DNA of 64,000 nt from an uncultured Solirubrobacterales bacterium (GCA_963770885.1 CAVYRI010000002.1:29265-93264); one strand, 5' to 3'; positions 19,070 to 64,000 are shown, numbered from the stretch's first letter. Notes: a model not told the origin generated them from the letters alone. Numbers and translations: made by a program.

Positions 19070-19123
19070 GCCGGTTATATTAGGGCCCGACACCGCTGCG
19101 TCAAGCCACAATCGGAGGAAGCC

Positions 19124-34130: not shown

Positions 34131-35633
34131 CTAACCGGCGACGAGCTCGCCGCGCTCGTGTGTGCCGGCGTCGCCCGAGTCCAGACCAGTCTCCAGTGGC
34201 TCTTCGTTCAACCGCCGTGCGGTGTGGCGCGCGGTCTCTCTGGCCCAGCCGGTGCTGGTCACGAAGCCGAGGCACAGTGCGGCCACACCGAGGCCGACGA
34301 CGACCCACCAACTCGCGTGGGTAGCGGCCGCAAACGACGGGCCCACGTTCTCGGCTGCAGCCCCCGCGGCCAGCGAGCCGAGCACGGCGACGCCAAGGGC
34401 GAAGCCGACCTGACGGCTCGTCGATGCGATCGCGGCGGCCACCCCGGCCTGTGAAGGCGGCATCCCCGAGACGGCCGTGTTGGTGATCGGCGGATTGACG
34501 AGCCCGAATCCGGCCCCGTAGATCGTGTAGGAGGCGATCAGCAGCGGGTACGAGGTCGTGGTCGTCAGGCCCGTCAGCATCAGACCGCCGACGATCAATC
34601 CGATCCCGCCGCCGACGAGCGGCAACCTCGTCCCGCGGGTGCTGACCATTCGTCCCGAGATCGGCGCGATCACGACGGTCGCAAGTGCGAGCGGGAGCAC
34701 ATAGAGCCCGGCATCGAGCGGCGACAGGCCGCGCACCTCCTGCAGATACAGCGTGTTCAGGAACAGAAAGCCGCCCAGCCCGGCGAACGCGAACAGCGCG
34801 ATCGCGCTGGCGCCGGCGAACGGGGCGCTGCCGAAGAAGCGGACCTCGATCAGCGGCTGGTCGCGGCGCAGCTCGTAGGGCACCAGCACAGCGAACGCGA
34901 TCACCGCGACCGCGAACAGGGTCACCGTCTGCGCCGACAGCCAGCCGCTGCCCGGAGCTTCGATGATCGCGTAGGTCAGCGTCGCGAGCCCGATGATCAC
35001 CAGCGCCTGACCGACGAGGTCCGGCCGGCGCGGCCGAGCGGCGCGCGACTCGGGCACGTACAGCGCGGTCAGCGCGATCGCGAGCACGCCGACCGGGACG
35101 TTGACCAGGAAGATCGACCGCCAGCCCACCGAGTCGACCAGCGCCCCGCCGATCACCGGGCCGAGCGCCATGCTGATCCCGAACACGCCGCCCCAGACGC
35201 CGATCGCGCGCGCCCGCTCGCGCGGATCCTCGAACACGTTGCGGATGATCGACATCGCGACCGGGTTGAGCATCGAGCCTCCGATCGCCTGCAGCACGCG
35301 GGCGGCGATCAGCAGGTCGAGGCTCGGTGCCACCGCGCACAGCAGCGAGCCGAGCGAGAACAGCGACAGCCCGATCTGGAACACCCGGCGCCGGCCGATC
35401 CGGTCGGCCGTCGACCCCGACAGCATCAGCAGGCTGGCGAGAACGAGCGTGTAGGCGTCGATCGTCCACTGCAGCCCCGACAGCGACGCATGCAGGGACC
35501 GATGGATCGACGGCAGCGCGACGTTGACGATCGTCGTGTCGAGCCCGACGATCAGCAGGCTCATCGAGCAGATGCCGAGGATCAGGAGACGCCGGCGCCG
35601 GTCCGGGTGGTGATCTGGGCCGCGCTGATCCAC
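34131..35633 (-). CDS. MFS drug:H+ antiporter, DHA2 (EmrB/QacA) family
   Basis: GLDTTIVNVALP, WTIDAY, GSTADRIGRRR, QAIGG, WRSIFLVNVPVG; 14 TM, 500 aa. Confidence 0.92.
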   Translation of the reverse strand: MDQRGPDHHPDRRRRLLILGICSMSLLIVGLDTTIVNVALPSIHRSLHASLSGLQWTIDAYTLVLASLLMLSGSTADRIGRRRVFQIGLSLFSLGSLLCAVAPSLDLLIAARVLQAIGGSMLNPVAMSIIRNVFEDPRERARAIGVWGGVFGISMALGPVIGGALVDSVGWRSIFLVNVPVGVLAIALTALYVPESRAARPRRPDLVGQALVIIGLATLTYAIIEAPGSGWLSAQTVTLFAVAVIAFAVLVPYELRRDQPLIEVRFFGSAPFAGASAIALFAFAGLGGFLFLNTLYLQEVRGLSPLDAGLYVLPLALATVVIAPISGRMVSTRGTRLPLVGGGIGLIVGGLMLTGLTTTTSYPLLIASYTIYGAGFGLVNPPITNTAVSGMPPSQAGVAAAIASTSRQVGFALGVAVLGSLAAGAAAENVGPSFAAATHASWWVVVGLGVAALCLGFVTSTGWARETARHTARRLNEEPLETGLDSGDAGTHERGELVAG

Positions 35634-35687: not shown

Positions 35688-37217
35688 CTAGCCCAGTTCG
35701 GTGTCCCAGCCGGCGATCAGCAGGCGAGCTGCCTCGACGTCAGGATGCAGCGGCCGGTCGCTCAGATCGGAGTTCAGATGCTCGGTCGCGGCCTGCCAAA
35801 GCGCCTGCGTCCCGGCCGCCTTGGGCTCGTAGCCGGCGAGCCGCAGCGCCCGCACGGCTACCACCAGCTCGGTCGCGACCGCCACGCGGAGCGCATCGAT
35901 CGCCTCGTGTGCTCGCCGGGCGGCGATCGGGGCCAGGCTCGAGTGCGACTCAACGCCGCGCGAGACCGTGACCGTCTGCGCGGCGACGGGCGTGACCAGT
36001 GAGCGGACCTCGGCGACCGCGGCGTGGGCGGTGTACTCGAGCACCAGCGCGCCCGACTCCGGGCCCGGCTTGCGCGCCAGAAACGGCGGCAGGCCGGTCA
36101 GGGTCGAGTCCAGCAGCGTGCTGACCCGGGCGGCGATCAGCGCGGCCGACTGGGCGACCGCCGTCCTGACCCCGTCAATCGCGTTGGCGAGCGGCGCCGC
36201 GTGGGGGTTGCCGTTGGGCAGCGCGATGTCGTCACCGGGGACGATCAGCGCGTTCTCACCGGCGAAGTTGAGCTCGTGGCCGACGGTCTCCTCGAGCGCG
36301 TTGAGCGCGTCGTGCACGGTTCCATCCACCTGCGGCTGGGCCCGGAACGGGTACGGATCCTGAACGCCGAGCGGCCCAGGCGCCCGGGTCCGCTCGCCGA
36401 CGCCCTCCAGCAGCTCGCGCATCCTGGCCGCGACCGCCGCCTGGCCCGGCCGGTGGCGCCACGAGTGGATCCGCGGGTCGAGCACCACCGGATCGGCGGC
36501 CGCAGCCTCGAATGACAGCGCCGCGACCGTCAGCCACGCATCGAGCAGCCGCCGCGCGTCGACCACCAGCAGCGCCGCGCGCCCGATGCTGACCGCGTTG
36601 GAGCTCATCAGGGCGAGACCGTCGCGGCCGCCCAGCCGGGCCGCCTGGAGGCCTGCGTCATGCAGCGCAGTCGACGCATCGAGCAGCTCCTCGCCACGCC
36701 ACACCTGTCCCTCGCCGAGCAGCGCCAGTCCGATATCGGCGAGATTGGTCAGGTCACCGGTGCCAAGCGACCCCAGCTCGCGGGTGAACGGCGACAGCCC
36801 GGCGTTGAGCAGGTTGACGAGCGCGTCGAGCAGCTCCCGCGCGACGCCGGCGCCACCGGCGCCGATCTGGTTGGCGCGGGTCGCCATCGCGGCCCGGACG
36901 AGCTGCGCGGGCAGCGGCTGGCCGGCGCCGCACGCATGGCTGCGCAGCAGGCTCAGCGAGTACTGCTGGCGGCGGTTCTTCGGCACCCGGTAGGCGCGCA
37001 GCGCGCCGACGCCGGTGGTGACGCCGTAGAGGTCGTCGCCGCGCGCGAGCAGCGCCGCGATCGCGTCGCGGGCGCGGTCGTTGCGGGCGTGCGCCTCGGG
37101 CGCGAGCTGTGCCCGGGCGCCCTCGCGCGCGATCAACGCGACCCTCTTTGGCGTCAGCGTCGCGCCGTCGAGGATCACGGGCGCGGTGGTTTCTGTCGCG
37201 AGCTGTTGCAGAGCCAT
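35688..37217 (-). CDS. aromatic amino acid lyase (HAL/PAL) family protein lacking the ASG/MIO motif (lyase 1)
   Basis: YGVTTGVG, RSHACGAG, GSLGTGDL in place of GSxGASGDL, QDPYPFRAQPQ, NGNPH. Confidence 0.85.
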   Translation of the reverse strand: MALQQLATETTAPVILDGATLTPKRVALIAREGARAQLAPEAHARNDRARDAIAALLARGDDLYGVTTGVGALRAYRVPKNRRQQYSLSLLRSHACGAGQPLPAQLVRAAMATRANQIGAGGAGVARELLDALVNLLNAGLSPFTRELGSLGTGDLTNLADIGLALLGEGQVWRGEELLDASTALHDAGLQAARLGGRDGLALMSSNAVSIGRAALLVVDARRLLDAWLTVAALSFEAAAADPVVLDPRIHSWRHRPGQAAVAARMRELLEGVGERTRAPGPLGVQDPYPFRAQPQVDGTVHDALNALEETVGHELNFAGENALIVPGDDIALPNGNPHAAPLANAIDGVRTAVAQSAALIAARVSTLLDSTLTGLPPFLARKPGPESGALVLEYTAHAAVAEVRSLVTPVAAQTVTVSRGVESHSSLAPIAARRAHEAIDALRVAVATELVVAVRALRLAGYEPKAAGTQALWQAATEHLNSDLSDRPLHPDVEAARLLIAGWDTELG

Positions 37218-37270
37218 CGCCAACGCACTCTAATCCCGTCGGCGACTTCGCGGCCAGTATCGTCGGCCGG

Positions 37271-38794
37271 ATGGACGGGTCCGTGACACTCACCGGTTGC
37301 GACCTCGATCCCGCGCTGCTGGCGGCGATCGCGCGCGACGGCGCCGCGGTCGAGATCGATCCGGCGGCGCGGGCCCGGATTGCAGCCGCCCACGCGACCG
37401 TGGAGCGAGCCGTCGCGGACGGGAGGCCGATCTACGGCGTCACGACCGGGCTTGGATCGAGGGTCGGCGAGCTGGTCGCCGGCGTCGACGGGGCGGTCTA
37501 TTCGCTGCGGACGCTCCGAGGCCGGGCGGCGGCGGTCGGCCCAGCGCTCGACCGCGAGCTCTCGCGCGCGGCGATGGCGGTCAGGTGCAACGGGATCTGC
37601 GCCGGCGGGTCGGGCGCCGGTCCGGCGGTCGCCGACGGGCTGGCGGCGCTGCTCAACGCGGGCGTGCACCCGCGGATTCCCGAGAGCGGCTCGGTTGGGG
37701 CGGCGGATCTGGTGATGCTCGCCTACGTCGGTCTGGTGTTGATCGGCGAGGGAGAGGCCGAGCTCGACGGCGAGCTGATGTCGGCGTCCGACGCGCTGGT
37801 GCGCTGCGGCCTTGAGCCCGTCGCGCTCGGGGCCAAGGACGGCCTTGCGATCTGCTCGAGCTCGGCGGTCAGCGCCGGTGCGGCGGCGTTGGCGCTGCTG
37901 GACGGCGAAGGCTGCCTGGCCTCCGTCCAGGTCTCGGCGGCGCTGTCGATGGAGGGCTTCAGAGCCAACCTGACGCCGATCGACGAACGGGTCGCGGCGG
38001 CCCGGCCGGCTCCTGGGCAGGAATGGGCAGCGGGCGGGCTGCGAGCGCTGCTGGCCGACGGCTCGCTGACCGAACCGGGGTCCGCACGCCGCCTGCAGGA
38101 CCCGCTCAGCTTCCGTTGCGCGAGCCAGATCCACGGCTCGTTACGCACGGCGCTCGACCAGCTGGCTGTCGCCGTTGACGCCGAGCTCAACGGCGCGGCC
38201 GACAACCCGCTCGTGCTGACCGCCGACGATCAGATCCTGTCGACCGGCAACTTCCACGTCCCGGCGCTCTCGCTCGCGCTCGATTCGGCGGCGATTGCCG
38301 TCGCCCAGGTGGCGGCGACCGTGGCCGAGCGCCCGGCGCGGCTGCGCACCCGCGCTTTGAGCGGGCTGCCGGCCGGACTCGTCCGCGGCGACGACGTCAC
38401 CCGCACCGGCGTCTCTCCGCTGCTCAAGACAGGGCAGGCGCTGACGCTCGAGATCCGCCACCTCGCCGCGCCGCTGGCGATCCATGCGACCGTCAGCGCC
38501 GAGGGCGTCGAGGATGACTCGACCGGCGCCACGCAGGCGGCGCTACGCCTGCGAGAGCAGCTTGCGAAACTGAGGCTGCTGATCGCGGTCGAGCTGCTGG
38601 TTGCGGCCGAGGCGGTGCAGCTCGCGTCGCCGGCCCGGTTGGGGCGCGGCACCGAGGCGGCGCAGCGTTGCGTTCGTGAGCTCGTCGCCGGGGTCGACCA
38701 CGACCGGCCGCTCGGCCCGGACGTGGAACTGCTCGCGGGGGAGGCGCTCGCGTCCGGGCGGCTGCTGGACCGCGTCCGGGAAGCGCTCGCTTGA
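37271..38794 (+). CDS. aromatic amino acid lyase (HAL/PAL) family protein lacking the ASG/MIO motif (lyase 2)
   Basis: IYGVTTGLG, GSVGAADL, LGAKDGL, LQDPLSFRC, DNPLV, TGNFH, GVEDD; TATCGT 7 nt before ATG. Confidence 0.87.
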   Translation: MDGSVTLTGCDLDPALLAAIARDGAAVEIDPAARARIAAAHATVERAVADGRPIYGVTTGLGSRVGELVAGVDGAVYSLRTLRGRAAAVGPALDRELSRAAMAVRCNGICAGGSGAGPAVADGLAALLNAGVHPRIPESGSVGAADLVMLAYVGLVLIGEGEAELDGELMSASDALVRCGLEPVALGAKDGLAICSSSAVSAGAAALALLDGEGCLASVQVSAALSMEGFRANLTPIDERVAAARPAPGQEWAAGGLRALLADGSLTEPGSARRLQDPLSFRCASQIHGSLRTALDQLAVAVDAELNGAADNPLVLTADDQILSTGNFHVPALSLALDSAAIAVAQVAATVAERPARLRTRALSGLPAGLVRGDDVTRTGVSPLLKTGQALTLEIRHLAAPLAIHATVSAEGVEDDSTGATQAALRLREQLAKLRLLIAVELLVAAEAVQLASPARLGRGTEAAQRCVRELVAGVDHDRPLGPDVELLAGEALASGRLLDRVREALA

Positions 38795-39786
38795 CGGCGA
38801 TCGAGCTCACCTACCTGAGCGGAGCCGACGTCGATGCGCTCGCGCTCGGCGATGACGAGATCCTGGAATCGATTCGCGGCGTGCTGGCCGCCCAGGGACG
38901 GGGCGAGACCGTGATCGAGCCTCGCACGCACCTCTTTCCCGGGCGCGCCGACGGCCATTTCAACGTCCTGCGCGGGGTCACCGCCGAATACGCGGGCGTC
39001 AAGGTGGTGGGCGACTTCGTCGACAACCACCGGCTCGGGCTCCCCTCGGAGATGGCGCTGCTGCTGTTGGCAGACCCCGCGACCGGCGTCCCGGCGGCAA
39101 TCGTCGACGCGACCGCGATCACCGAGATGCGAACCGGGGCGGTGACGGCGATCGGCGCCGAGCACCTCGCCCGGCGCGACGCCCGCACGCTCGGCCACAT
39201 CGGCGCCCGCGGCAGCGCCTACTGGAACGTCCGTCTGCTCTGCAGGGTGCTACCCGAGCTCGAGCAGATCCGCGTCCACTCCCGTCGCCCCGCGAGTCGT
39301 GAGCAGTTCGCCCGGCGCCTGTCAGCCGAGCTCGGAATCGATGTACGGGCGGTCGATACCTGGGAGCAGTGCGTCCGGGAAGCCGACGTGGTCGTCGAGG
39401 CCTCGCGGCTCAGCAGCCCCGAGCCGCTACTTGCGACCTCCTGGATCAAGCCCGGGGCGCTCGTGATCCCATACGGGACGGTCAGCGCCGTCGAGCTCGA
39501 CCTGACCGAGGTGATGGACAAGATCGTCGTCGACGACTGGGGCCAGGTGCACTCCGGCCCGCTCGGAGCGCTCCGCGCGCACGTCGACTCGGGCCGGCTG
39601 TCGGAGCGCAACCTCCATGGCGAGCTCGGCCAGATCGTGTCCGGCGCACTCGTCGGCCGCGAGCGCGCCGACGAGACGATCCTGTTCTGGCACCGGGGGC
39701 TCTCGATCACGGACATCGCGCTCGGCGAGGCGCTGCTCGCCAAGGCCGGCGCACGCGGGGTCGGGACCCGGCTCCCCTATCGCTAG
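38791..39786 (+). CDS. ornithine cyclodeaminase/mu-crystallin family protein
   Basis: GVKVVGDFVDN, ITEMRTGAVTAIGA, GHIGARGSA Rossmann, ADVVVEAS, GLSITDIA. Confidence 0.88.
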   Translation: MTAIELTYLSGADVDALALGDDEILESIRGVLAAQGRGETVIEPRTHLFPGRADGHFNVLRGVTAEYAGVKVVGDFVDNHRLGLPSEMALLLLADPATGVPAAIVDATAITEMRTGAVTAIGAEHLARRDARTLGHIGARGSAYWNVRLLCRVLPELEQIRVHSRRPASREQFARRLSAELGIDVRAVDTWEQCVREADVVVEASRLSSPEPLLATSWIKPGALVIPYGTVSAVELDLTEVMDKIVVDDWGQVHSGPLGALRAHVDSGRLSERNLHGELGQIVSGALVGRERADETILFWHRGLSITDIALGEALLAKAGARGVGTRLPYR

Positions 39787-39811
39787 CGGCCTGCGGTAGC
39801 GTGCGGACGCG

Positions 39812-41465
<1,654 letters not shown>

Positions 41466-41469
<4 letters not shown>

Positions 41470-42716
41470 GCCCGGGCTCGGTCTCGGTCAACGGCGCCGA
41501 GCAGATCCTGCGCCCCGACCGCGACGGCCGCCCCTACATCCGCGGCACCGACGCCGGCAGCCAGACGCTCGAGCCGGGCGATCTGCTGATCGCCGAGGGG
41601 AAGATCGCCGGGTTTGAGCCCGACGGCGACGCCGCGGTGCAGGTCGACGCGTCCGGATGCGCCGTGATTCCCGGCTTCGTCGACTGTCACACCCACCTGC
41701 CGTTCGTCGGCTGGCGGGCGTGGGAGTACGAGCAGAAGATCGGCGGCGTGCCCTACGAGCAGATTTCGCGCGAGGGTGGCGGGATCGCATCGTCGGCCCG
41801 CGCGCTGGCCGAGAGCTCCGACCAGCAGGTGCTCGACCAGTCGGCTGCCCTGGCCGCCGAGATGCTGGCCGCGGGGACGACCACGTTCGAGTGCAAGTCC
41901 GGCTACGGCCGCTCGCGCGAGGGTGAGCTGCGGGCGCTGGCGCTCGCCCGTGAGCTCGACGACCGCGTCGTGCAGACGACCACCTCGACCGCGCTGCTCG
42001 CCCACTCGGTGCCGCCGGGATACACGGCCGACGAGTGGATGGATGAGGTCGAGGCGATGATGCCCGAGGTGGTTGCGCCCGGGAGCGTGAGCGCGGTCGA
42101 CATCTTCGTCGAGTCGATCGCGTTCGACAACGACCATCTGACCCGGATGGGCCGGCTCGCCGCCGACTCGGGGCTGGCGCTCCGCTGTCACGTCGAGCAG
42201 TTCGGCGGCCTGCGCTCGGTGCCGGTCGCGCTCGCAGCAGGCGCCCGCTCGGTCGATCACCTGTCGACCCTTCACAGCGATGACGTCGAGCCGCTCGCCG
42301 CATCGGAGTGTGCGGCGGTGCTGCTGCCGGCCGCCGAGTTTCTCGGCGCCGAGCACCGTGCTCCAGGGCGCCGGCTGCTCGATGCCGGCGCGATCGTCGT
42401 GCTCGCGACCGATCTGAACCCCGGCACGGCGCCGGTTGCGTCGCTGCCGGTGGTGATCGGGCTGGCGGTGCGGCTGTATGGGATGAGCCCGCGCGAGGCG
42501 CTCGCGGCGGTGACGCTGAACGGCGCCTGGACGGTGGGGCTGGAGCGCGATCGGGGGTCGATCGAGCCCGGCAAGCGAGCCGACCTGCTGGTGCTCGACG
42601 GGCCGGTGGACCGGGTCGCATACCGCTTCGGTCGTAACCCGGTTGCGGTCGTGATCGTCGACGGTGCGGTCGCCTATGTGCGTGATGACGCGCGCGGGCG
42701 GGTGAGCGAGCGATGA
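41466..42716 (+). CDS. hutI: imidazolonepropionase
   Basis: [62 protein letters not shown]. Confidence 0.88.
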
Positions 42717-43831
42717 GGAGCGCGTCGATTCCCGCGATGGCCAACGCCCACAGCCACGCGTTCCAGCTCGACCTGCGCGGGGTCGGCGAGCGGCCGCACC
42801 CCGGCGATGACTTCTGGAGCTGGCGCAACGAGATGTACCGGCTCGCCGGCAGCCATGACCCGGACTCGATGCGCGCCGTCGGCGAGCGAGTCTACGGCCA
42901 GATGGCGGCCGCCGGGTACGGCGCGCTGGGCGAGTTTCACTACGTCGTTCACCAGCCTGACGGGACGCCGTACCCCGAGCCCAACGCGATGGCGATCGCG
43001 CTTGCGCAGGCGGCCCTGGCATCTGGACTGGAGATCGTGCTGCTGCCCGCGGCCTACAACCGCGGCGGCGCCGGGCGCGCGCCAGATCCGGGCCAGCGGC
43101 GCTTCTGCGACCCCGACGTTGCGACGTTCCTTGAGCGCACCGACCGGTTGCGCGAATGGGCCGACGGCCAGCGGGGTGTCAGCGTCGGGGTCGCGGTCCA
43201 CAGCGTTCGCGCGGTCGGAGCCGACTGGATCGAGGCGATCGCCCGCTACAGCGACGAGCACCGCCTGGTCCGTCACGTGCACGCATGCGAGCAGCTGCGC
43301 GAGCTGTCCGAGTGCGACGCCGAGCACGGCTGCTCGCCGATCGAGTTGCTGCAGCGCACCGGCTTCCTCGGTCAGCGGTGCAGCGTCGTGCACGCGATCC
43401 ACGTCAGCGACCGCGACGTCGAGCTGCTCGCCGCGACCGATTCGATCGTGATCACCTGCCCGACGACCGAGGGCAACCTCGGTGACGGATATCTGCCGGC
43501 GCTGCGCTACCGCGATGCGGGTGTGCGGCTCGCGATCGGGACCGATTCCCAGGTCCGGATTGACCCGTTCGAGGAGCTGCGCGAGATGGAGACGCTCGCG
43601 CGCCGAGAACGCCAGACGCGCTATGCCCTGCTCGAGGCGGCCGACGGCGACCTCTGGGGGCAGACGGTCGCCAACGGTCGCGCGAGCCTGGGACTGTCGG
43701 GCGCAGGGCGTGAGGTTGAGATCGATCTCGATTCACCTGAGCTGGCCGGGGTGGCCGAGCGGGACCTGCCGCTCGCGCTGGCGACCTGCGCGTCGGCGGC
43801 GATCGTCCGCGGCGGGGGCGTTCGACGATGA
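42713..43831 (+). CDS. hutF: formimidoylglutamate deiminase
   Basis: [59 protein letters not shown]. Confidence 0.9.
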
Positions 43832-45219
43832 CGGTCACGCTGGCGCGCCGCGCCGACATCGACCTTGACGCGTTCAGGCGTGTGGCGTGGGAGGGTGAGG
43901 CGGTCTCGGTCGACCACGCTGCACTCGACGAGGTGGCCCGGCGGCGCGAGCAGTTTTTGACCTTCGTCGCGGCCAATCCCGACCGCAGGTTCTACGGCGT
44001 CAACGTTCACGCCGGGGAGGGCGCCAACCGCGCTTTGAGTGCTTCGGACCAGCGCGACTACGCGCGCGGCCTGCACAGCGGCACCTCGTTCGGCGAACCG
44101 CTGCCGCAGCGGGTGGTACGCGGGGTCGTGCTCTCCAGGCTGGCCAACTTCATCGAGGGCCACGCCGGGGTCAGCGCCGAGCTGGTCGAGGTCGTGGCGA
44201 GCCGACTCGACGGCCGGCGGCTCCCGCCGGTGCCGCGCTACGGAAACGGCGGCGCGGGCGAGATCCAGGCGCTCGGCTGGCTGTTCGAAGACGTCGGCGA
44301 GGAGCTGGCGCTCGGCGTCAAGGAGCCGATGGCGTTGATCAACGGCGCGCCGTGCGCCCCGGCGCTGCTGGCCGACGTGGTGCTCGTCGCCGAGCTGGTG
44401 ATCGAGGTTGTGCAAGCGGTCATGTGCCTGGCGGCCGCCGCGCTTGGGGTGGCCCCGGTGACCTATGACCGCCGGCTCGACGCGCTGTGGGGCGACCCGT
44501 TTCAGGCTCAGGCGCTGGCGGCGATCCGTGCCGCCCTGAACGGCGCCGACAAGCTGGAAGGCCTCGAGCACGCGCAACCTCCGGTGTCGTTCCGGATCCT
44601 CCCGCGCGTGGTCGGCAACGCACTCCGGGTCCTGGCCGCGGCCCGCGATGCGGCCGCGATCGCGCTGCCGGCGGTCAGCGACAACCCCGTGTTCCTGTTC
44701 GATGACGGCCCCGAAGACATGGTCTCAAACGGGGGCTTTCACAACGCCGCCGCCCCGGCCTGCATCGATGCGCTGACGTTCGCGCTGGCTGACTTCGCGC
44801 AGCTGGCCCAGCACCAGGTGCAGCGCCTGCAGACCAGCCCGCAGGCGCTGCCCGGCCTCGACTCGCTCGGGCTCGGCACGATGCAGATGGTGGCCGGGGG
44901 CTATGCCGAGGAGGCGCGAGCAGCCGCGGTTCCGTCACTGCTGCCGCTGTCGGGGTTCGGTCAGACCGACGTGCCGGCGCCCGCGTTCTTTGCCTACAGC
45001 CGCTTTGACCGTGTCCGCGGCTTCCTGCTCGGCTCGCTGACGTGTCTGGCCGCGCTCGCCGCCCAGGCGCTGGCGCGTCCCGGCCGGACCGTGCCCGGAG
45101 CCTTGGGCGCGCTCCAGGCCGCGGTGCTCGCCGCCTGTCCGCCGATCGCCGAGCGTCGCTCGCTCGGCCCGGAACTGTCGGCGCTCGCGGCCGCGATAGC
45201 TCCCGAGATCCCCGCCTGA
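43828..45219 (+). CDS. highly divergent aromatic amino acid lyase family protein, no MIO motif (lyase 3)
   Basis: FYGVN, RLANFIEGHAGVS, GNGGAGEI, KEPMALINGAP, QPPVSFRILP, SDNPV, NGGFHN; 463 aa. Confidence 0.78.
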   Translation: MTVTLARRADIDLDAFRRVAWEGEAVSVDHAALDEVARRREQFLTFVAANPDRRFYGVNVHAGEGANRALSASDQRDYARGLHSGTSFGEPLPQRVVRGVVLSRLANFIEGHAGVSAELVEVVASRLDGRRLPPVPRYGNGGAGEIQALGWLFEDVGEELALGVKEPMALINGAPCAPALLADVVLVAELVIEVVQAVMCLAAAALGVAPVTYDRRLDALWGDPFQAQALAAIRAALNGADKLEGLEHAQPPVSFRILPRVVGNALRVLAAARDAAAIALPAVSDNPVFLFDDGPEDMVSNGGFHNAAAPACIDALTFALADFAQLAQHQVQRLQTSPQALPGLDSLGLGTMQMVAGGYAEEARAAAVPSLLPLSGFGQTDVPAPAFFAYSRFDRVRGFLLGSLTCLAALAAQALARPGRTVPGALGALQAAVLAACPPIAERRSLGPELSALAAAIAPEIPA

Positions 45220-45222
45220 GTC

Positions 45223-46518
45223 ATGCCCCATCGCTATCCGTGCCTACTCGCATCGCCACCGGCCCGGCCCGGCCGGCTGTGGCTGACCGGAGCACGGCTG
45301 TTCGATGGCACCGGCGGCCAGGTGCACGAGGGCGTCGCCGTGCTGGTCAACGACGGAGTGATCGAACGGGTGGGGGAGGCCGGGGAGCCGGCGCCCGAAG
45401 GGGCTTATGTCGTGGAGCTCGATGGGCGGACCCTGATGCCGGGGCTGATCAACGCCCACGTCCACGTGCAGGGCCACCGGCCGGCGCCCGGGCACGGCGC
45501 CGAGCCGCTGTTGGCGGGCACCAGCGCGCACTTCCTGCAGGCGAGCCTGCGCGACTGCCTGCGGATGGGCGTGACGACGATCCGCAACGTCGGCTCGCAG
45601 GAGCGCCAGCCCCAGGAGGTCCGCCAGGCGATGCGCTACGGCGCCTTCCGCGGGCCGCGGCTGCTCACCTGCGGGCTGATCATCTCCGCGACCGCCCCCG
45701 GCGGGCGGTTCTACGGCGCGATGTACCGCGAGGCGGACGGCCCCGAGGAGATCCGCAAAGCCGTCCGCGAGCAACTTCGCGACGGCGCCGACTTCATCAA
45801 GGTGATGACCTGCGGCGCGCGGTCAAACGAGCTCGAGGACCCCGACCCGCTGCAGCTGACCGACGCTGAGCTGTCGGCGCTCGTCGGTGAGGCACACCGG
45901 ATGGGGGTGCGGGTGGCCGCCCATGTCGAGGGGCTCGACGGCACCGAGGCCGCGATCGAGCACGGGATGGACACGATCGAGCACGGGATGTACCTCTGCC
46001 AGCGTCCCGAGCTGCTCGAGCGGATGGCCGCCCACGGCCAGGTCCTGGTGCCGACCCTGAGCGGCTACTACTGGATGGCGGGCTTGGGCGATGCGATCGA
46101 CCCCGCCGGCGCGACGGTCGCGCCCGAGATGCTCGACAGCATCGTCGCACTCGCGCACTACAACCTCGAGCAGGGCAGCGCCTCGCTGCGGGCGGCACGG
46201 GACGCCGGCGTCCCGATCGCGCTCGGCTCAGACCGCGACGGCGTGTCGGGCGACGACACCGCCCTGGAGCTGGTGCGGATGGTCCATCACGGCCTCAGCG
46301 CACGTGAGGCGCTGCATGCGGCAACCGGCGCGGCGGCCCGCGCGATCGGCCTCGGCGAGTACATCGGCGTCGTGGCGCCCGGCCGGTTGGCCGACCTGGT
46401 GATCATCGACGGCGACCCGGTGGCCGAACCGTCGCTGCTGCTGGACCGCGATCGGATCTGGCTCGTGCTGCAGCTAGGGGAGCCCGTGGCCGGCGCGGCT
46501 TATGAGGATCGCCTGTAG
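45223..46518 (+). CDS. metal-dependent amidohydrolase (Xaa-Pro dipeptidase/prolidase-like subgroup)
   Basis: PGLINAHVH, GADFIKVMTCG, AAHVEG, TIEHG, ALGSD, GRLADLVIIDGDP. Confidence 0.88.
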   Translation: MPHRYPCLLASPPARPGRLWLTGARLFDGTGGQVHEGVAVLVNDGVIERVGEAGEPAPEGAYVVELDGRTLMPGLINAHVHVQGHRPAPGHGAEPLLAGTSAHFLQASLRDCLRMGVTTIRNVGSQERQPQEVRQAMRYGAFRGPRLLTCGLIISATAPGGRFYGAMYREADGPEEIRKAVREQLRDGADFIKVMTCGARSNELEDPDPLQLTDAELSALVGEAHRMGVRVAAHVEGLDGTEAAIEHGMDTIEHGMYLCQRPELLERMAAHGQVLVPTLSGYYWMAGLGDAIDPAGATVAPEMLDSIVALAHYNLEQGSASLRAARDAGVPIALGSDRDGVSGDDTALELVRMVHHGLSAREALHAATGAAARAIGLGEYIGVVAPGRLADLVIIDGDPVAEPSLLLDRDRIWLVLQLGEPVAGAAYEDRL

Positions 46519-47379
46519 CCTGGCCGCCTCGCGCTGGGGCGCGCCGGTGAGCCGCTCCCAGGTCACGCGAAGACTCACGTAACCGGCCGCGAGCAGCGCC
46601 GCGTCGCGCTCCCGGTCGCGCTCGAACGAGCGCTTGGAGGAGTGAAACTCCCAGCCGTCGAGTTCGACGACCACCTTGGCGTCGGCGAACAGCGCGTCGA
46701 CCTCGTAGCCGATGACGCGCACGTTCATCTGCGGCGTCGGCAGGCCGTACTCGCGCGCGAACGCGAGAAAGCGGTCCTCGAACTCCGAGCGCGTCGGGCC
46801 GGTGGCGTGCTCGGCAAACGGCCTCAGCAGGCGCGTACCGCGGTGGTACGGATTGCGTGCGATCGCGTCCGCCAGATGGTTGACGCGAAGGCCGGCGTTC
46901 AGACGCGCCTCGTTGACGGCGCGGGCTCGGCGCGCCTGCGTCAGCCTCGGCGCGATGTCGAGGACTGTGCGGGCTGGGCTGGTGACCCGAATGCCCCTGT
47001 GGCGCCGGATGTCCTGGCTTTCGAGAGCAGGGTGGAGGTGGACCCGGATCCCGGACGGGCGGCGCCGCGCGGGGACGGTGACCTCGGGGATCTGCGGCCA
47101 GCGCTTCACGAACCCCCAGAGGGCGGCCGCCGAGAAGTAGCTGAGGGCCGCCTGGTCCCCGCAGGCCAGGACGGCCGCGGCGGCGCGGGCGATCGGTTCG
47201 GGGCGGGGATGGCCGACTGCGTAGACACCTGGGTAGACCCGGATCAGCCGCCCGAGCCGTATCCGCGTCGCGATCTCGCTACGCGTAAATCCGAGCTCGA
47301 TCAGCTGGGCGTAGCTGACATGGCCGTACTGACGGGCTGCGAGGCGAGCCAGCAGGACATCTCTTGGAACCGAATGCAC
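46474..47379 (-). CDS. AbiEi-like N-terminal domain + DUF559 (Vsr-like endonuclease) protein
   Basis: LAARQYGHVSYAQL..LG, YPGVYAVGH, VTSPARTVLD, TRSEFE, EVDALF..AKVVVELDGWEFH, RDRERD, LRVTWE; start uncertain. Confidence 0.85.
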   Translation of the reverse strand: MHSVPRDVLLARLAARQYGHVSYAQLIELGFTRSEIATRIRLGRLIRVYPGVYAVGHPRPEPIARAAAAVLACGDQAALSYFSAAALWGFVKRWPQIPEVTVPARRRPSGIRVHLHPALESQDIRRHRGIRVTSPARTVLDIAPRLTQARRARAVNEARLNAGLRVNHLADAIARNPYHRGTRLLRPFAEHATGPTRSEFEDRFLAFAREYGLPTPQMNVRVIGYEVDALFADAKVVVELDGWEFHSSKRSFERDRERDAALLAAGYVSLRVTWERLTGAPQREAARLQAILISRAGHGLP

Positions 47380-47404
47380 GCTATACGTGCAGAGCGTTCC
47401 AAGA
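47362..47404. other. 43-nt inverted repeat (possible terminator or operator) between two minus-strand genes
   Basis: TCTTGGAAC-cgaa-TGCACG-ctata-CGTGCA-gagc-GTTCCAAGA directly after the stop at 47405. Confidence 0.6.
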
Positions 47405-48310
47405 CTACGTTTCCGCCCCCCTTGAAAGCCGCAACCGGACCCCCGCGGCGTCCTCATAGAGCTGCATGACGCTCATCTCGCCGGCCGAGTCACCGTAAAC
47501 CTCGCGCACCCGCACGTGGATCTGCTCGACGAGTGCCGCCAACTCCACCGACACCCCCGCGTCGCGCGCCAGTTCCACGGCCAATCCCAGGTCCTTGGTC
47601 ACCAGTGACATGAAGAACCCCTCGTCGTAGTCCCCGTCATCGAGAACCATCCGCACATCGCGCTCGAGGAACACCGAGTTGGCCGGGGAGGAAACCAGCG
47701 CCTCGTGGAGCTTGTCCAGCGACACGCCGGCCTTGACCCCCACGGTCAGGGCCTCGGCGGTCGCGACCGCCTGCACGAACCACATCAGGTTGAGCAGCAG
47801 CTTGGTCGTGTAGCCGCTGCCCTGCTCGCCGACGTGCATGATCCGCTGCGGATTGCCGATCGCCTCCAGCACCGGCCGGGCGCGCTCAAAAGCGCGATCG
47901 GATCCCCCGACATAGATCGCCAGCATCCCCGCCTCGGCGCCGATCGTCTGACCGGCCACCGGAGCGTCGACGAGTTCGATCCCACGCTGCGCGGCCAAAG
48001 CGCAGGCGCGGCGGCCGACCTCGAGCGAACTGGTGCTCATCTCGATCGCCAGCGAGCCCGGAGCCAACACCCCAAGCGCCTCCCTGAGAACCGCGTCAAC
48101 CTGCACCGGCCCCGGGAGGCTGGTGACCAACACGTCCGCCCCGTCGAGGCAGTCGGCGATCGAGGAAGCTCCGCGCGCACCGTGCGACGCGGCTCGCGCA
48201 ACGGCCTGCGCAACCACGTCAAACGCAGACACCGAGAATCCCGCCTCGCACACGTGCCGGCACATGTGCGACCCCATCCGCCCGAGCCCGATGAACGCGA
48301 CCCGCGTCAT
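47405..48310 (-). CDS. NAD(P)-dependent beta-hydroxyacid dehydrogenase (3-hydroxyisobutyrate dehydrogenase family)
   Basis: VAFIGLGRMG, VTSLP, EMSTS, VDAPVAG, catalytic TKLLLNL. Confidence 0.9.
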   Translation of the reverse strand: MTRVAFIGLGRMGSHMCRHVCEAGFSVSAFDVVAQAVARAASHGARGASSIADCLDGADVLVTSLPGPVQVDAVLREALGVLAPGSLAIEMSTSSLEVGRRACALAAQRGIELVDAPVAGQTIGAEAGMLAIYVGGSDRAFERARPVLEAIGNPQRIMHVGEQGSGYTTKLLLNLMWFVQAVATAEALTVGVKAGVSLDKLHEALVSSPANSVFLERDVRMVLDDGDYDEGFFMSLVTKDLGLAVELARDAGVSVELAALVEQIHVRVREVYGDSAGEMSVMQLYEDAAGVRLRLSRGAET

Positions 48311-49416
48311 GAGACCGAGTACCTAGACACCGCGTCCTCGTCCAACACGACACCGAGGCCAGGCTCTGAGGGGACCGCGAGCATCCCGTCGCCGTCAACG
48401 CGCACCGGCGCGGCGAGCATGAAGTCACGGCGCTCCGGCGTCCATCCGGGCGGGTCATATGGGTACTCGATGAATGGGCCACCGCCAACGCCGCAGCAGA
48501 CCTGGAGGTTGGCGAGCATCCCGATCCCGTTGGTCCACGTGTGAGGCGTGAACCAGCGATTGCGACGCAGAGCGAGGTCGGCGAGCGTGCGCGCGCCCGA
48601 GATGCCGAGCGCCAGCACGACATCGGGCTGGACTACGTCTAGCGCCTCCTGCTCGAGCGCGACGCGCAGCTCGTCAAACCCACGCGCCATCTCGCCGCCC
48701 GCGATCCGCACGCCCGACACCGAGCGCAGCATCCGCATCCCGGCCAGATCCGCGCCCGCCAGCGGCTCCTCGACCCACAGGACGCCGTACTCGTCGAGCC
48801 GTTCGATCACCCGGCGAGCGTCGGCAACACCGAGTCCAGGGGCGATGTCACCCGCCATCCGCCACCACTGGTTGAGGTCGACCATGATCTCGAGCGCATC
48901 GTCGACGGCCTCACGGATCGCGGCCACGACCGCGATCCCCTCTGCGATCCGGTCACGGGCGATCCGCACCTTGACGGCGCCGAACCCCTCCTCGACGAGC
49001 GCCCGCGCGTCGTCGCGCCGGACGTCCGCCGCTCGCAGCTCGCCCCACGACGCGTAGGCCGGCACCCGATCCAGGGCGCCGCCGAGCAGCGATGCGACCG
49101 AGACTCCGTGCGCGCGTCCGAACAGGTCCCAGAGCGCGGCCTCCACCGGCCAGTAGCGCCCGGCGTGAAAGGAGATCGTCTCGAGCGTCCTGGCATGGGC
49201 CGACAGCGCCAGCGCGTCGCGCCCGATGAACAGATGCTCGAACTCCCCAAAGCCCGTCATCGTGTCCCCCGAGCCGACCCCGGTCACCCCCTCATCGGTC
49301 TCGACGCGGACGATCGACGCTTCAAAGACACGGCGCGGATCGGGATCCCAGGCCGCGAAGAACGGCGGGTCGAGATCGAGGCGCAACCGCTGCACTCCGA
49401 TCGCGGTGATCCTCAC
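48307..49416 (-). CDS. mandelate racemase/muconate lactonizing (enolase superfamily) enzyme
   Basis: EAALWDL, GFGAVKVR, metal ligands VDLN / WVEEP / AGGE, QPDV, TPH. Confidence 0.9.
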   Translation of the reverse strand: MRITAIGVQRLRLDLDPPFFAAWDPDPRRVFEASIVRVETDEGVTGVGSGDTMTGFGEFEHLFIGRDALALSAHARTLETISFHAGRYWPVEAALWDLFGRAHGVSVASLLGGALDRVPAYASWGELRAADVRRDDARALVEEGFGAVKVRIARDRIAEGIAVVAAIREAVDDALEIMVDLNQWWRMAGDIAPGLGVADARRVIERLDEYGVLWVEEPLAGADLAGMRMLRSVSGVRIAGGEMARGFDELRVALEQEALDVVQPDVVLALGISGARTLADLALRRNRWFTPHTWTNGIGMLANLQVCCGVGGGPFIEYPYDPPGWTPERRDFMLAAPVRVDGDGMLAVPSEPGLGVVLDEDAVSRYSVS

Positions 49417-49950
49417 TCACTCGCCGCCGTAGAAGGGATTGCGCACCGTGTCGCGGCGTTCCACCAGGGCCAAGGCGGCGTCCATGTCGCGGCCGAGCAC
49501 GGCCGTCCGGATCCCCTTCAGGGTCGCGGCGCGGCTCGAGATCCGGACCTTGGTCTCATCGGTCGCGCCAGGGTCGATGTAGATCGCGACGAACACGAGC
49601 ACGTCTCCGCTGCACGGGATCAGCTCCTCCGCGACCGCGTCGAGCACGCCCTGCCCGATCCCCAGCTGGCCCGCCCCCCAGGTGATCGTCTGGTGTTGCT
49701 CCTCGAGCGCGGTCGCCTTGTTGATCATGATCGTCGGCGGCCAGACGGGCTCGTAGTCGTGCTTGGTCGCGCCGACGACGACCAGGATCGGGGCGTGACC
49801 CGGCGCGGGGGAGGTGAAGGTGCCCAGCAACGAGGCGGCGGTCGCGCTGCCCCGCTCGGCGAGGACGACGTTGACATGCGCGCCGTCGGGGTCGACGCCG
49901 CTCCACCCCTCGCCGATCAGACCGTCGAAGTCAGCCGGGAAGCGGCTCAT
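49417..49950 (-). CDS. formaldehyde-activating enzyme (Fae) family homologue
   Basis: IGEGWSG...GAHVNVVL.ERG, PPTIMINKAT, TWGAGQLGI.QGVLDAV, VFVAIYIDP align by eye with Fae (IGEALVG..VAHIDLI, PNTILFNKVT, MFGPAQ.AV); 177 aa. Confidence 0.72.
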   Translation of the reverse strand: MSRFPADFDGLIGEGWSGVDPDGAHVNVVLAERGSATAASLLGTFTSPAPGHAPILVVVGATKHDYEPVWPPTIMINKATALEEQHQTITWGAGQLGIGQGVLDAVAEELIPCSGDVLVFVAIYIDPGATDETKVRISSRAATLKGIRTAVLGRDMDAALALVERRDTVRNPFYGGE

Positions 49951-51137
49951 GCGGCGCCCCCGGCCGCGGCGCCCGCGAGTTCTGAGTCGACGATCACGAC
50001 CGAACGGTCGCCGTCGCCCCGACACATTCGGCCGAACGCGTCCTGCACCCCGTCGAGCGTGATCAGGTCGGAGACCACACCACCCAGGTCCAGCCGGCCC
50101 GACCGCACCAGCTCGACCAGCCCGGGGAGGCTCTGCGCCGGATCAGACGAGCCGTAGTAACTGCCGACGATCGCCTTCTCGGACGAAAACTGAATCGCGG
50201 GCAGCGACACCTCGGCGCCGACCGGCGAGACGCCGACGACGACCGCGGTCCCACCGGGCGCGAGCGTGTCCCACGCCATCCTGATCGTCGCTGGCGATCC
50301 GACCACCTCGAACGCGTGGTCGACCCCGCCGCCGGCAGACGCCCGCACCTGGGCAACGGCATCGTCGTCCCGCGCATCGACCGCGTGGGTTGCGCCGCGG
50401 CGCAGCGCGTGGTCGAGCTTTGGAGCGGCACGATCGACCGCAATGATCGTCGCCGCGCCGCCCAGGCGCGCGGCAGCGATCACCTGCAGGCCGACGCCGC
50501 CGCAGCCGATCACGCAGACGCGCTCGCCGATCGCGACCCGCGCCGCGTGCGTGACCGCACCAAACCCGGTCACGACTCCGCAGCCGAGCAGTGCCGCCTG
50601 CCACAGCGGAATGTCGCGTGGGATCGCGATCACGCCGGCGCGGGCGACGACCGCGTGCTCCGCGAAGCAGGCGACGGTCAGGCCGTGCTGGAGCACCGTG
50701 CCGTCGGCTCCGCGCAGCCGTGAAGTGCCGTCGGGCATCGTGCCGGCGAGCGAGTTGCGCGCCGCCGTCTCGCACAGCGTCCGGCGTCCGCTGCGGCAGG
50801 CGCCGCACGCGCCGCACGAGGCCACGAACGAGAAAACGACGTGATCTCCAACCGCGAGCCCGGTGACGCCGTCACCGAGGGCTTCGACAACGCCGGCGCC
50901 CTCGTGGCCGAGCACGATCGGCCAGCGCCCGGGTCCGAGCAGCCCGTCGGCGAGGTGGAGATCGGAGTGGCAGACGCCGGCGGCGGCGATCCGGACGAGC
51001 ACCTCGTCGCGGCGCGGCGGCTCGAGCAGCACACGCTCGCAGACGACCGGCCGTCCGGGCTCGCGCAGCACTGCGGCCCGCATCTCGATCGCGGCGCGCG
51101 TACTGCGCCTGAGCTCGGCCAGCGAGGTCTCTGTCAT
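49947..51137 (-). CDS. zinc-dependent alcohol dehydrogenase (class III/formaldehyde dehydrogenase-like MDR)
   Basis: GVCHSD, LGHEGAG, CGACGACRSGRRTLC, LLGCGVVTG, GCGGVG; alternative start ATG 51083. Confidence 0.92.
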   Translation of the reverse strand: MTETSLAELRRSTRAAIEMRAAVLREPGRPVVCERVLLEPPRRDEVLVRIAAAGVCHSDLHLADGLLGPGRWPIVLGHEGAGVVEALGDGVTGLAVGDHVVFSFVASCGACGACRSGRRTLCETAARNSLAGTMPDGTSRLRGADGTVLQHGLTVACFAEHAVVARAGVIAIPRDIPLWQAALLGCGVVTGFGAVTHAARVAIGERVCVIGCGGVGLQVIAAARLGGAATIIAVDRAAPKLDHALRRGATHAVDARDDDAVAQVRASAGGGVDHAFEVVGSPATIRMAWDTLAPGGTAVVVGVSPVGAEVSLPAIQFSSEKAIVGSYYGSSDPAQSLPGLVELVRSGRLDLGGVVSDLITLDGVQDAFGRMCRGDGDRSVVIVDSELAGAAAGGAA

Positions 51138-63088: not shown

Positions 63089-63097
63089 CCATAGCTC

Positions 63098-64000
63098 ATG
63101 ACCATCGTCTCAGCTAACGAGAAGATTCTCCTCAGTGGCGATGGTCTGACCGTGGACGACGTGCTGGCGATCGCACGCGGCCGCGCGCGGGTCGAGCTCG
63201 ACCCGGCTGCGCTCGTCCGCGTTCGCGCGGCGCGCGAGGTCGTCGACCGGGTGCTGGCCAGCGGTGAGTCGGTGTACGGGCTCAACACTGGTCTCGGATC
63301 GCTGTCGCGCCACCACATCGCGCTCGACGAGATCGGCGCGTTCTCGTTCGCGACGGTCGCCGATCAGGTCTCCTCCTACGGCCGCCCGCTGCCGAGCGAC
63401 GTCGTGCGCGCGATGATGGTCTCGCGGGTCAACGGCATGCTGAAGGCCGGAGTGGGGGTGACGCGTGAGCTGATCGAGCTGCTGGTCGCATTGCTGAACG
63501 CCGACGTGCACCCGATCGTGCGGATGCTTGGATCGGTCGGTCAGGGTGACCTGTCGGAGATGGCCGACATCGGCAAGGTCCTGATCGGCCGCGGCTGGGC
63601 CGAGTACGAGAACGAGACCGTGCCCGGTGACGAGGCGCTGCGCCGCGCCGGGATCGAGCCGATCGCCTTGGGCCCCAAGGAGGCGCTCGGGTTGATCAGC
63701 GCCAACGGGGTGACGATCGGGCGCGGCTCGCTCGTCCTCGTCGACGCCGCCGACCTGATCGAGAGCATGCAGATCGCTGCGGCGCTCAGCTTCGAGGCGT
63801 TCGCGGCGAACCTCTCGATCATTCATCCGGCTGCCGATCGCGCCCGTCCCCACTCCGGTCAGCAGACCGCGAGCGCGCGGCTGCGCGAGCTGCTGGAGGA
63901 CTCCGAGCTGTGGCGGCCCGGTGCGGCCCGAAACCTCCAGGACCCGCTCTCGATCCGCTGCGTGCCGCAGACCCACGGCGCCGTCTATGACGCGCTCTCG
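63098..64000 (+). CDS. aromatic amino acid lyase family protein lacking the ASG/MIO motif (lyase 4; candidate ergothioneine/hercynine TMA-lyase), 3'-truncated by the window edge
   Basis: Own translation from ATG 63098 (missing from the ORF track, no stop before the edge): LSGDGLTVDDV, VYGLNTGLG, GSVGQGDL, LGPKEAL, ISANG, LQDPLSIRCVPQTHG; TATAAC at 63081-63086. Confidence 0.87.
   Translation, partial: MTIVSANEKILLSGDGLTVDDVLAIARGRARVELDPAALVRVRAAREVVDRVLASGESVYGLNTGLGSLSRHHIALDEIGAFSFATVADQVSSYGRPLPSDVVRAMMVSRVNGMLKAGVGVTRELIELLVALLNADVHPIVRMLGSVGQGDLSEMADIGKVLIGRGWAEYENETVPGDEALRRAGIEPIALGPKEALGLISANGVTIGRGSLVLVDAADLIESMQIAAALSFEAFAANLSIIHPAADRARPHSGQQTASARLRELLEDSELWRPGAARNLQDPLSIRCVPQTHGAVYDALS

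Follow-up and report, generated by a model that had tools for sequence, protein, structure and literature searches.

We analyzed a 64,000-nt stretch of DNA from an uncultured Solirubrobacterales bacterium (GCA_963770885.1, CAVYRI010000002.1:29265-93264), here called the window, in which genes of the histidine utilization (hut) pathway lie together with several homologues of histidine ammonia-lyase (HAL) and a gene of the ornithine cyclodeaminase (OCD)/mu-crystallin family. The window is positions 29265-93264 of contig C2 in a 5.77-Mb, 12-contig genome with an estimated completeness of 92.8%. Its G+C content is approximately 70%, and close homologues of its genes are labelled as Solirubrobacteraceae or Solirubrobacterales metagenome-assembled genomes (MAGs) from soil; the source is an uncultured soil Solirubrobacteraceae genome. 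When we searched sequencing runs for the source reads, none contained the whole stretch, and the best share was 0.17. Genes were called in the window with Pfam and NCBIfam profile searches. The genes of the operon and its divergent flank, with the match on which each call is based, are as follows.

34131-35633, minus strand: major facilitator superfamily (MFS) transporter (PF07690, 217 bits; ratio of nonsynonymous to synonymous substitution rates [dN/dS], 0.12-0.32)
35688-37223, minus strand: lyase 1, HAL-family lyase without the methylidene-imidazolone (MIO) motif (PF00221, 421 bits)
37224-37270, no strand: divergent intergenic region between lyases 1 and 2 (read from the sequence)
37271-38794, plus strand: lyase 2, MIO-less HAL-family lyase (PF00221, 416 bits)
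38791-39786, plus strand: OCD/mu-crystallin family NAD(P) enzyme (PF02423, 181.9 bits; cut-off, 24)
39812-41469, plus strand: hutU, urocanate hydratase (hutU model; three frames in the assembly)
41466-42716, plus strand: hutI, imidazolonepropionase (TIGR01224, 319.7-321.6 bits; cut-off, 298)
42713-43831, plus strand: hutF, formimidoylglutamate deiminase (NF006681, 415 bits; cut-off, 362)
43828-45219, plus strand: lyase 3, diverged HAL-family lyase (PF00221, 156 bits in two stretches)
45223-46518, plus strand: amidohydrolase of the carboxypeptidase/Xaa-Pro dipeptidase type (PF01979, 154.5 bits)

The plus-strand genes are tightly packed. Their junctions are TTGA, GTGA, ATGA, and ATGA overlaps, the first of which joins the lyase 2 stop codon to the OCD start codon, and gaps of 3 nt and 25 nt. 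Lyase 1 diverges from lyase 2 across 47 nt if its TTG start is used or 53 nt if it starts at the ATG at 37217, and this gap is presumably a shared control region. An original prediction, made from the sequence alone, had given the same gene content and order, stop/start coupling for most of the genes, and a divergent spacing of about 53 bp for lyase 1, and these features all stand in the profile calls and the sequence. The gene order is repeated in more than 20 Solirubrobacterales MAGs, and the dN/dS of every operon gene relative to its relatives is 0.04 to 0.44; therefore, we do not regard the arrangement as a product of chance. Relatives also keep the pairing of lyase 1 with the MFS gene. 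Lyase 3 is kept in some relatives and absent from others, and the amidohydrolase is present in only part of them.

We compared the lyases of this locus, together with a fourth HAL-family gene (lyase 4) that starts at 63098 and runs past the end of the window, with characterized members of the family. Residue numbers follow Pseudomonas putida HAL (PpHAL), except for Lys384, which is numbered as in the Treponema denticola ergothionase (6s7j), the best PDB match of lyase 4. Lyases 1 to 3 were aligned with PpHAL and with the genome's own canonical HutH, and the residues at position 384 were read transitively through an alignment of lyase 4 with 6s7j and a MAFFT alignment, since six HAL entries rank ahead of 6s7j among the PDB matches of lyases 1 to 3. 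All four lyases lack Ala-Ser-Gly, and their loops are one residue shorter than the canonical loop: GSLG-TGDL in lyase 1, GSVG-AADL in lyase 2, GNGG-AGEI in lyase 3, and GSVG-QGDL in lyase 4. The loop length equals that of the T. denticola ergothionase (SIGEGD). On the hutH model TIGR01225, lyases 1, 2, and 3 score 383, 341, and 128 bits, respectively, below the cut-off of 539. Ser occupies the Asn195 position in lyases 1, 2, and 4, as in ergothionase, and Tyr53, Gln277, and Arg283 are present in lyases 1, 2, and 3. The three operon lyases differ at the His83 and Glu414 positions (His and Glu in lyase 1, Arg and Glu in lyase 2, Ser and Thr in lyase 3), and position 384 is Tyr, Lys, Met, and Arg in lyases 1 to 4. 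In a maximum-likelihood tree drawn without Swoo_3913, SO_3057, SO_3299, and Pseudomonas HutH1, lyases 1, 2, and 4 fall in one clade (support 100/98) that contains no sequence bearing Ala-Ser-Gly; lyase 3 forms a separate, long-branch clade. The clade of lyase 2 spans Actinomycetota and Pseudomonadota.

HAL homologues without MIO have been characterized as trimethylammonia-lyases, namely ergothionase, Swoo_3913, and SO_3299, and all of them require the trimethylammonium group; in Treponema, Lys384 binds the thiolate of the substrate, and Asn or Gln stands there in sulfur-free specificities (bioRxiv 10.1101/2025.08.13.670108, 10.64898/2026.04.22.720169). Such enzymes can do without MIO because trimethylamine is a good leaving group. 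A literature search for further betaine lyases yielded only the two Shewanella preprints.

Lyase 1 keeps Tyr53, His83, Gln277, Tyr280, Arg283, and Glu414, and its changes relative to canonical HAL are the MIO loop and N195S; the Tyr that it has at position 384 is shared with HutH. Its relatives fill more than 120 protein clusters at 78 to 88% identity from Solirubrobacteraceae metagenomes, and its dN/dS is 0.13 to 0.18 with four relatives and 0.44 with L036, a MAG with split operon genes. As described, Swoo_3913 of Shewanella woodyi has a similar character, being MIO-less with the carboxylate and imidazole residues of HAL, the catalytic Tyr, and a neutral residue at position 384, although that residue is Asn in Swoo_3913 and Tyr in lyase 1; it converts hercynine to urocanate and trimethylamine (bioRxiv 10.1101/2025.08.13.670108). 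Judged from these residues, lyase 1 is most likely a hercynine (histidine betaine) trimethylammonia-lyase that yields urocanate, and the MFS protein at 34131-35633 is a candidate importer of its substrate. The setting differs from that in Shewanella: Swoo_3913 acts in the periplasm, where it is linked with a urocanate reductase in anaerobic respiration (bioRxiv 10.1101/2025.08.13.670108), whereas lyase 1 is paired with an MFS gene, and its predicted product, unlike that of Swoo_3913, would be fully degraded by hutU-hutI-hutF.

Lyase 2 has Arg at His83, Leu at Tyr280, and Lys at 384, and it belongs to an OCD-linked clade defined by this Arg/Lys combination. In the transitive alignment, it shares the Lys384-type residue with ergothionase (T. 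denticola 6s7j, Burkholderia sp. HME13, and the ErtA-E pathway), and the MIO-less lyases of this genome share with ergothionase the shortened G-x-G-D loop and, in lyases 1, 2, and 4, Ser at Asn195, but the Arg of lyase 2 stands in place of a His in ergothionase. These residues suggest that the substrate of lyase 2 carries an anionic group on the ring side, as ergothioneine does. Because of the Arg at His83 and the Lys at 384, lyase 2 probably takes an anionic 2-substituted hercynine. In lyase 3, approximately 24 residues are missing after the MIO loop; because it is under selection (dN/dS 0.13-0.27), we do not consider it a relic.

HutU carries the motif YGQMTAGSW, and its three pieces score 473.7, 252.9, and 141.1 bits on the hutU model versus 374.5, 143.3, and 99.1 bits on the thiourocanate hydratase model; the first piece alone (474 bits) exceeds the cut-off of 375. 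By motif and scores, hutU is classed as a canonical urocanase, in contrast to the thiourocanate hydratase used in the Ert pathway. The genome's single hutI and its only hutF above the cut-off both lie in the operon. HutF is a short form that begins at approximately profile position 49, and its relatives have the same length. Within the 64-kb window, we found no HAL with Ala-Ser-Gly. The genome does contain a canonical hutH, at C1:946758-948236 (558 bits; cut-off, 539; loop GSLGASGDL), among genes unrelated to hut (a MOSC-domain gene, an AraC regulator, and a glyoxalase). The original prediction was therefore right that the lyases are MIO-less, that HutU is canonical, and that the window has no canonical HutH; its claim that the lyases replace hutH does not survive the genome-wide search that it had proposed as a check, and hutH is supplemented rather than replaced. 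Because the genome's only hutI and hutF reside in the operon, it must also serve ordinary histidine; it is the general lower hut pathway of the organism, fed with histidine through the unlinked HutH and presumably also with the products of the attached lyases. In actinobacteria, as in Streptomyces, it is usual for hutH to lie away from the lower-pathway genes, and the Streptomyces-type system likewise uses the HutF branch; here, unlike in that system, MIO-less lyases and an OCD gene are joined to the lower operon.

Searches of the genome found no HutG of the FGase type (PF05013) and no EgtD. The amidohydrolase at 45223-46518 (best PDB match, L-arginine carboxypeptidase Cc2672) might serve as the N-formylglutamate hydrolase, given that the genome has no FGase; because EgtD is missing as well, hercynine would be scavenged or imported rather than made. 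Two further hutU-family genes are present, one thiourocanate-hydratase-like gene in an ergothioneine cluster (described below) and one on contig C1 near hydantoinase/oxoprolinase genes. The latter (C1:92000-110000) scores 777 bits on the hutU model and 733 on the S-methyl thiourocanate hydratase model, and it adjoins two hydantoinase/oxoprolinase genes, a GntR/FCD regulator, and several amidohydrolases; this locus may encode another pathway for an imidazole derivative. A further HAL-family gene, at C5:594134-595690 (438 bits, below the hutH cut-off), has Ala-Ser-Gly intact with Met at His83 and Gln at Glu414, and it is probably a phenylalanine or tyrosine ammonia-lyase or an aminomutase-type enzyme, not a histidase.

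In the assembly, hutU is read in three frames (39812-40744, approximately 40722-41162, and 41164-41469), split by two single extra bases, one near 40720/21 and one near 41163. Alignment with five hutU orthologues shows exactly two bases unique to the window, and hutU reads in one frame in the relatives compared. We checked the insertions against Logan contigs from four related soil metagenomes, which are not the source reads. At 40720, one base is missing from a 151-nt contig that has a single further difference; at 41163, one is missing from a 229-nt contig that is otherwise identical. Without either base, the HutU frame is restored at its site (e.g., ...EGMLDGSDAV...). The dN/dS across all three pieces is 0.04 to 0.19, indicating strong purifying selection. 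Because the short-read contigs lack both insertions, the relatives are intact, and the gene is under purifying selection, we read the insertions as most likely assembly or consensus errors in an intact hutU. We considered hutU as a pseudogene and rejected this, given the near-identical contigs without the insertions and a dN/dS that is not raised. Genes split into two to four frames also occur in related long-read MAGs and include MFS, lyase 1, lyase 2, hutU, and SNF2 helicase genes (L025 571-2063, MFS; L031 8426-9950 and 13158-15316, lyase 2 and helicase; L036 5367-12568, several genes). Single-base indel errors thus seem common in this data set, and for this reason broken genes in these MAGs should not be called pseudogenes without read support.

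The OCD protein passes the family model only. On all 13 NCBIfam models it stays far under the cut-off, with its top score on that of archaeal alanine dehydrogenase (AlaDH; 171 bits versus a cut-off of 409). It thus falls outside the OCD, AlaDH, SbnB, pyrroline-2-carboxylate (Pyr2C) reductase, BhcD, and EutC subfamilies. Its best PDB matches are pyrroline-2-carboxylate reductase and archaeal AlaDH, and a protein language-model search places it near clusters whose automatic names come from the SbnB dehydrogenase. The unpublished genome G024 gave a weak OCD-family hit, which supports none of the claims made here. A search of the literature found no link of the OCD/cyclodeaminase family with ergothioneine or hercynine.

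To follow the OCD clade, we scanned one genome per species; the figures given here cover the best 80 loci, of which 50 lie outside Solirubrobacterales. Orthologues in these loci are 63 to 92% identical across phyla. Their hosts include Solirubrobacterales, Streptomyces, Actinoallomurus, Alcaligenaceae, Casimicrobiaceae, and Usitatibacter, as well as Kiloniellales, Aquamicrobium, Inquilinus, Halofilum, and others. In 58/80 loci, the OCD gene has a HAL-family gene no more than 5 kb away, and in 46/80 the two are directly adjacent; outside Solirubrobacterales, the 5-kb count is 34/50. Lys is found at position 384 in 32 of these 34 lyases, and the other two are apparently canonical HutH with Ala-Ser-Gly. 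The Lys-type lyases near OCD genes are either of the lyase 2 type (Arg/Lys, GS[IV]GA[AS]DL) or of an Alcaligenaceae type (His/Lys), and the lyase-OCD pair as a whole spans Solirubrobacterales, Streptomyces, and Alpha-, Beta-, and Gammaproteobacteria. OpuA-type betaine ABC transporters, which take up quaternary amines, are frequent neighbors in the 50 loci (ATPase in 23, OpuAC in 19), and TctC receptors are also common. Hut genes occur in 12 of the 50. Those tested are canonical (hutU, 949 to 976 bits; hutI, 489; hutF, 676) and are accompanied by an FGase-domain (hutG-type) gene and a GntR/UTRA (HutC-type) regulator. The original prediction had called for a survey of how often this OCD clade sits in hut operons, and the outcome is that the clade frequently occurs together with MIO-less lyases, betaine uptake, and hut genes. 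Four of the five module-bearing genomes that we checked lack ErtB and ErtC; Achromobacter insuavis holds the lyase-OCD module and the complete Ert pathway together.

Not every OCD orthologue is accompanied by a lyase. In L050-L054 (Solirubrobacterales; 8300-12700), the OCD gene lies beside malate synthase and lactate permease genes, and in L067 (Dongia sp.; 6800-10996) beside an MttB-family gene and an aspartase/fumarase-family lyase gene, with no HAL-family gene at these loci. In L078 (Pigmentiphaga; 10001-12430), it lies beside a UbiD decarboxylase gene, and the lyase 2 query has no HAL-family match in the genome. A strict dependence of the OCD enzyme on a lyase was therefore rejected, since there are genomes with OCD but no lyase 2-type gene.

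Among the Streptomyces loci, a conserved gene of approximately 300 codons follows the OCD-lyase pair (at about 12510-13660 in L073, L075, L084, L086, L091, L095, L096, L099, L102, L105, L107, L114, and L115). Its product has no Pfam match and an N-terminal D-x-H-x-H-like metal motif. An OpuA-type transporter, transcribed divergently, lies upstream of the pair together with an RpiR regulator. One of these loci, L115 (Streptomyces sp.), has a second MIO-less lyase at 16755-18275 with His at His83 and Asn at Lys384; this is the residue pattern of the Shewanella histidine betaine lyase, and the protein groups with lyase 4 in the tree.

Other genes of the window support a betaine theme. Approximately 11 kb from the operon, at 57766-64000 (to 64675 in the genome), ErtE-, ErtC-, ErtB-, and ErtD-like genes diverge from lyase 4. 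They include an ErtE-like amidase and an ErtD-like hydantoin-propionate amidohydrolase, and the thiohydantoin desulfurase and thiourocanate-hydratase-like genes score 427.5 bits (cut-off, 440) and 746 bits (cut-off, 930), respectively. An IclR regulator and an amino-acid permease lie downstream. Judged by its gene content, this 57.8-64.7 kb cluster corresponds to the published ergothioneine-catabolism pathway, of which, to our knowledge, an OCD-family enzyme is not a part. An island at 6216-20566 encodes a dimethylglycine-dehydrogenase-like protein (DAO+GCV_T), electron transfer flavoprotein alpha and beta subunits, an Fe-S/CCG oxidoreductase, a RACo corrinoid activase, a pterin-binding methyltransferase, methylenetetrahydrofolate reductase, and an MttB-family methyltransferase (625 bits); it fits betaine and one-carbon metabolism.

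At the end of the operon, an AbiEi-antitoxin/DUF559-endonuclease-like gene (46474-47457, minus strand) converges on the amidohydrolase gene, with 45 nt at the 3' end of the latter common to both. In most relatives, too, a homologue closes the operon, whichever gene is last. The region at 47405-51137 carries 3-hydroxyisobutyrate-dehydrogenase-like, enolase-superfamily (MR_MLE), formaldehyde-activating enzyme (Fae)-like, and zinc alcohol dehydrogenase genes, and in the relative L031, Fae and NAD_binding_2 genes adjoin hutF. These neighbors hint at a link to methyl-group or formaldehyde handling.

Our favored explanation, which we hold to be somewhat better than an even bet, is that the locus is a lower hut operon to which betaine lyases have been attached as entry enzymes, lyase 1 for hercynine and lyase 2 for an ergothioneine-like compound. 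What we observed are the identities of the genes, the state of their motifs, synteny, purifying selection, and the genome inventory; we infer every substrate, the loss of trimethylamine, and the function of the OCD enzyme. In this reading, the MIO-less lyases belong to that branch of the HAL family which comprises the trimethylammonia-lyases ergothionase and histidine betaine lyase. Ordinary histidine would enter through the unlinked, MIO-containing HutH. Lyase 1, co-transcribed with the MFS transporter, would cleave imported hercynine (N-alpha-trimethylhistidine) to urocanate and trimethylamine, and this urocanate would feed hutU-hutI-hutF, which would carry it by way of imidazolonepropionate and formiminoglutamate to N-formylglutamate. 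Lyase 2 would take an anionic 2-substituted hercynine, either ergothioneine or a derivative, and the NAD(P)-dependent OCD enzyme would perform a further step. The entry substrate had originally been proposed to be an N-alpha-substituted histidine, with hercynine as the simplest case. The hercynine part of that proposal has gained ground, in that the MIO-less type is tied to trimethylammonium substrates and lyase 1 keeps the contacts to histidine.

Several observations weigh against this explanation or parts of it. Specificity in the lyase family is not predictable from sequence: SO_3299, which lacks the Lys and was expected to be active on hercynine, was not, and takes N-pi-methyl histidine betaine instead (bioRxiv 10.1101/2025.08.13.670108, 10.64898/2026.04.22.720169). 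We likened lyase 1 to Swoo_3913 by way of the published description, the clade of lyase 1 is seen in Solirubrobacterales alone, and its MFS partner is not a betaine-type transporter. A full Ert-type route is already present in the genome, and the need for another ergothioneine-type lyase is not obvious. The OCD gene is absent from some relatives (L031), and its orthologues turn up in unrelated contexts and in genomes where the search gave no lyase 2-type gene; the OCD enzyme may be a general enzyme and not a dedicated step of this pathway. In relatives G011 and G016, opposite-strand genes split lyase 2-OCD from hutU; therefore, lyase 2-OCD and the hutU part can be separate transcription units. 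Finally, the hutU frameshifts could be real in this strain.

Among the alternatives, the one that survives best, though we consider it unlikely, is a plain histidine operon in which hutU-hutI-hutF would serve only histidine supplied by way of the unlinked HutH, and the MIO-less lyases, like the OCD gene, would be neighbors of unrelated or lost function. The canonical hutH elsewhere in the genome and the sole hutI/hutF set in the operon are consistent with it, as is the loss of several pocket residues in lyase 3. There is also a precedent in Pseudomonas (P. fluorescens SBW25 and P. aeruginosa), whose hut loci hold a second HAL homologue, hutH1, that is dispensable on histidine, together with an extra ABC transporter, hutXWV. 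By analogy, these hutH1/hutXWV loci may be a related unexplained case, although the Pseudomonas descriptions name no OCD gene, whereas here an OCD gene and three lyases are found. Purifying selection on all three lyases and on the OCD gene argues against loss of function, and their synteny with hut in more than 20 MAGs, their translational coupling, and the recurrence of the lyase 2-OCD pair in canonical hut operons of unrelated Proteobacteria argue against an incidental neighborhood.

A second alternative, also raised in the original prediction, retains an N-alpha-substituted histidine as the entry compound but makes it an opine-like secondary amine, which the lyase would split into urocanate and an amino acid while an OCD enzyme resembling AlaDH or SbnB oxidizes the amine or cleaves the conjugate. 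The nearest models of the OCD protein are indeed archaeal AlaDH and SbnB-type dehydrogenases, its orthologues lie beside malate synthase and lactate permease genes or an aspartase-family C-N lyase gene, and its presence in genomes where no lyase was found would suit an enzyme whose substrate is a common amino or keto acid. However, the characterized MIO-less lyases strictly need the trimethylammonium group, OpuA-type transporters are the commonest neighbors outside Solirubrobacterales, the operon contains no opine-type transporter or oxidase, and the conserved Lys384-type residue is left without an explanation. On this balance, opine-like entry seems decidedly improbable.

The distribution of the lyase 2-OCD pair can also be read more boldly than in our favored explanation. 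The Lys384-type lyase and the OCD enzyme might constitute an undescribed two-enzyme module that converts an imported sulfur-bearing or anionic histidine betaine to urocanate for canonical hut operons; we regard this as improbable. One possible chemistry for such a module would run from ergothioneine to thiourocanate and on to urocanate, with an NAD(P)H-dependent desulfurization by the OCD enzyme.

That chemistry, taken as a short ergothioneine route in which lyase 2 forms thiourocanate, NAD(P)H-dependent sulfur removal gives urocanate, and hutU-hutI-hutF follow, is very unlikely in our estimation. It would account for the thiolate-binding Lys in 32/34 of the OCD-associated lyases outside Solirubrobacterales, for the occurrence of the module in canonical hut operons with true urocanases rather than thiourocanate hydratases, for the lack of ErtB and ErtC in 4/5 module genomes, and for the betaine-type transporters that adjoin the module. 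Yet such a reaction is known for no OCD-family enzyme, OCD orthologues occur without a lyase 2-type gene (in Pigmentiphaga without any HAL-family match to the query), this genome and that of A. insuavis hold both the module and a complete Ert pathway, and lyase 2 has Arg at His83, unlike true ergothionases.

The weakest alternative, a decaying operon in which hutU is a real pseudogene with two frameshifts, draws on the two +1 insertions in the deposited sequence and on the two other hutU-family genes in the genome, and we find it scarcely credible given near-identical short-read contigs without each insertion, a dN/dS that is not raised, otherwise intact operon genes, and the many like frame breaks in other genes of related long-read MAGs.

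The enzyme families discussed here are already known, as is the idea of a hercynine lyase, from anaerobic respiration in Shewanella. What is new, on the evidence of gene content and motifs, is the apparent wiring of MIO-less lyases into an aerobic actinobacterial hutU-hutI-hutF operon and the recognition of a putative Lys-type lyase and OCD module that is widely conserved. Soil is rich in hercynine and ergothioneine, betaines of fungi and actinobacteria. For their aerobic mineralization, only one pathway, that for ergothioneine, is known, and the one role so far described for a hercynine lyase is to provide Shewanella with a respiratory electron acceptor. The operon suggests that soil actinobacteria plug betaine lyases straight into the histidine pathway; if so, histidine betaines would be converted to glutamate with the release of trimethylamine. 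If the OCD enzyme does remove sulfur, the OCD/mu-crystallin family would gain a new reaction, and bacteria would have a third route of ergothioneine breakdown. The module has clear sequence markers and culturable hosts, including Streptomyces aurantiacus, Bordetella petrii, Aquamicrobium soli, Pelagibius, and Achromobacter, and it may explain the second hutH genes of Pseudomonas.

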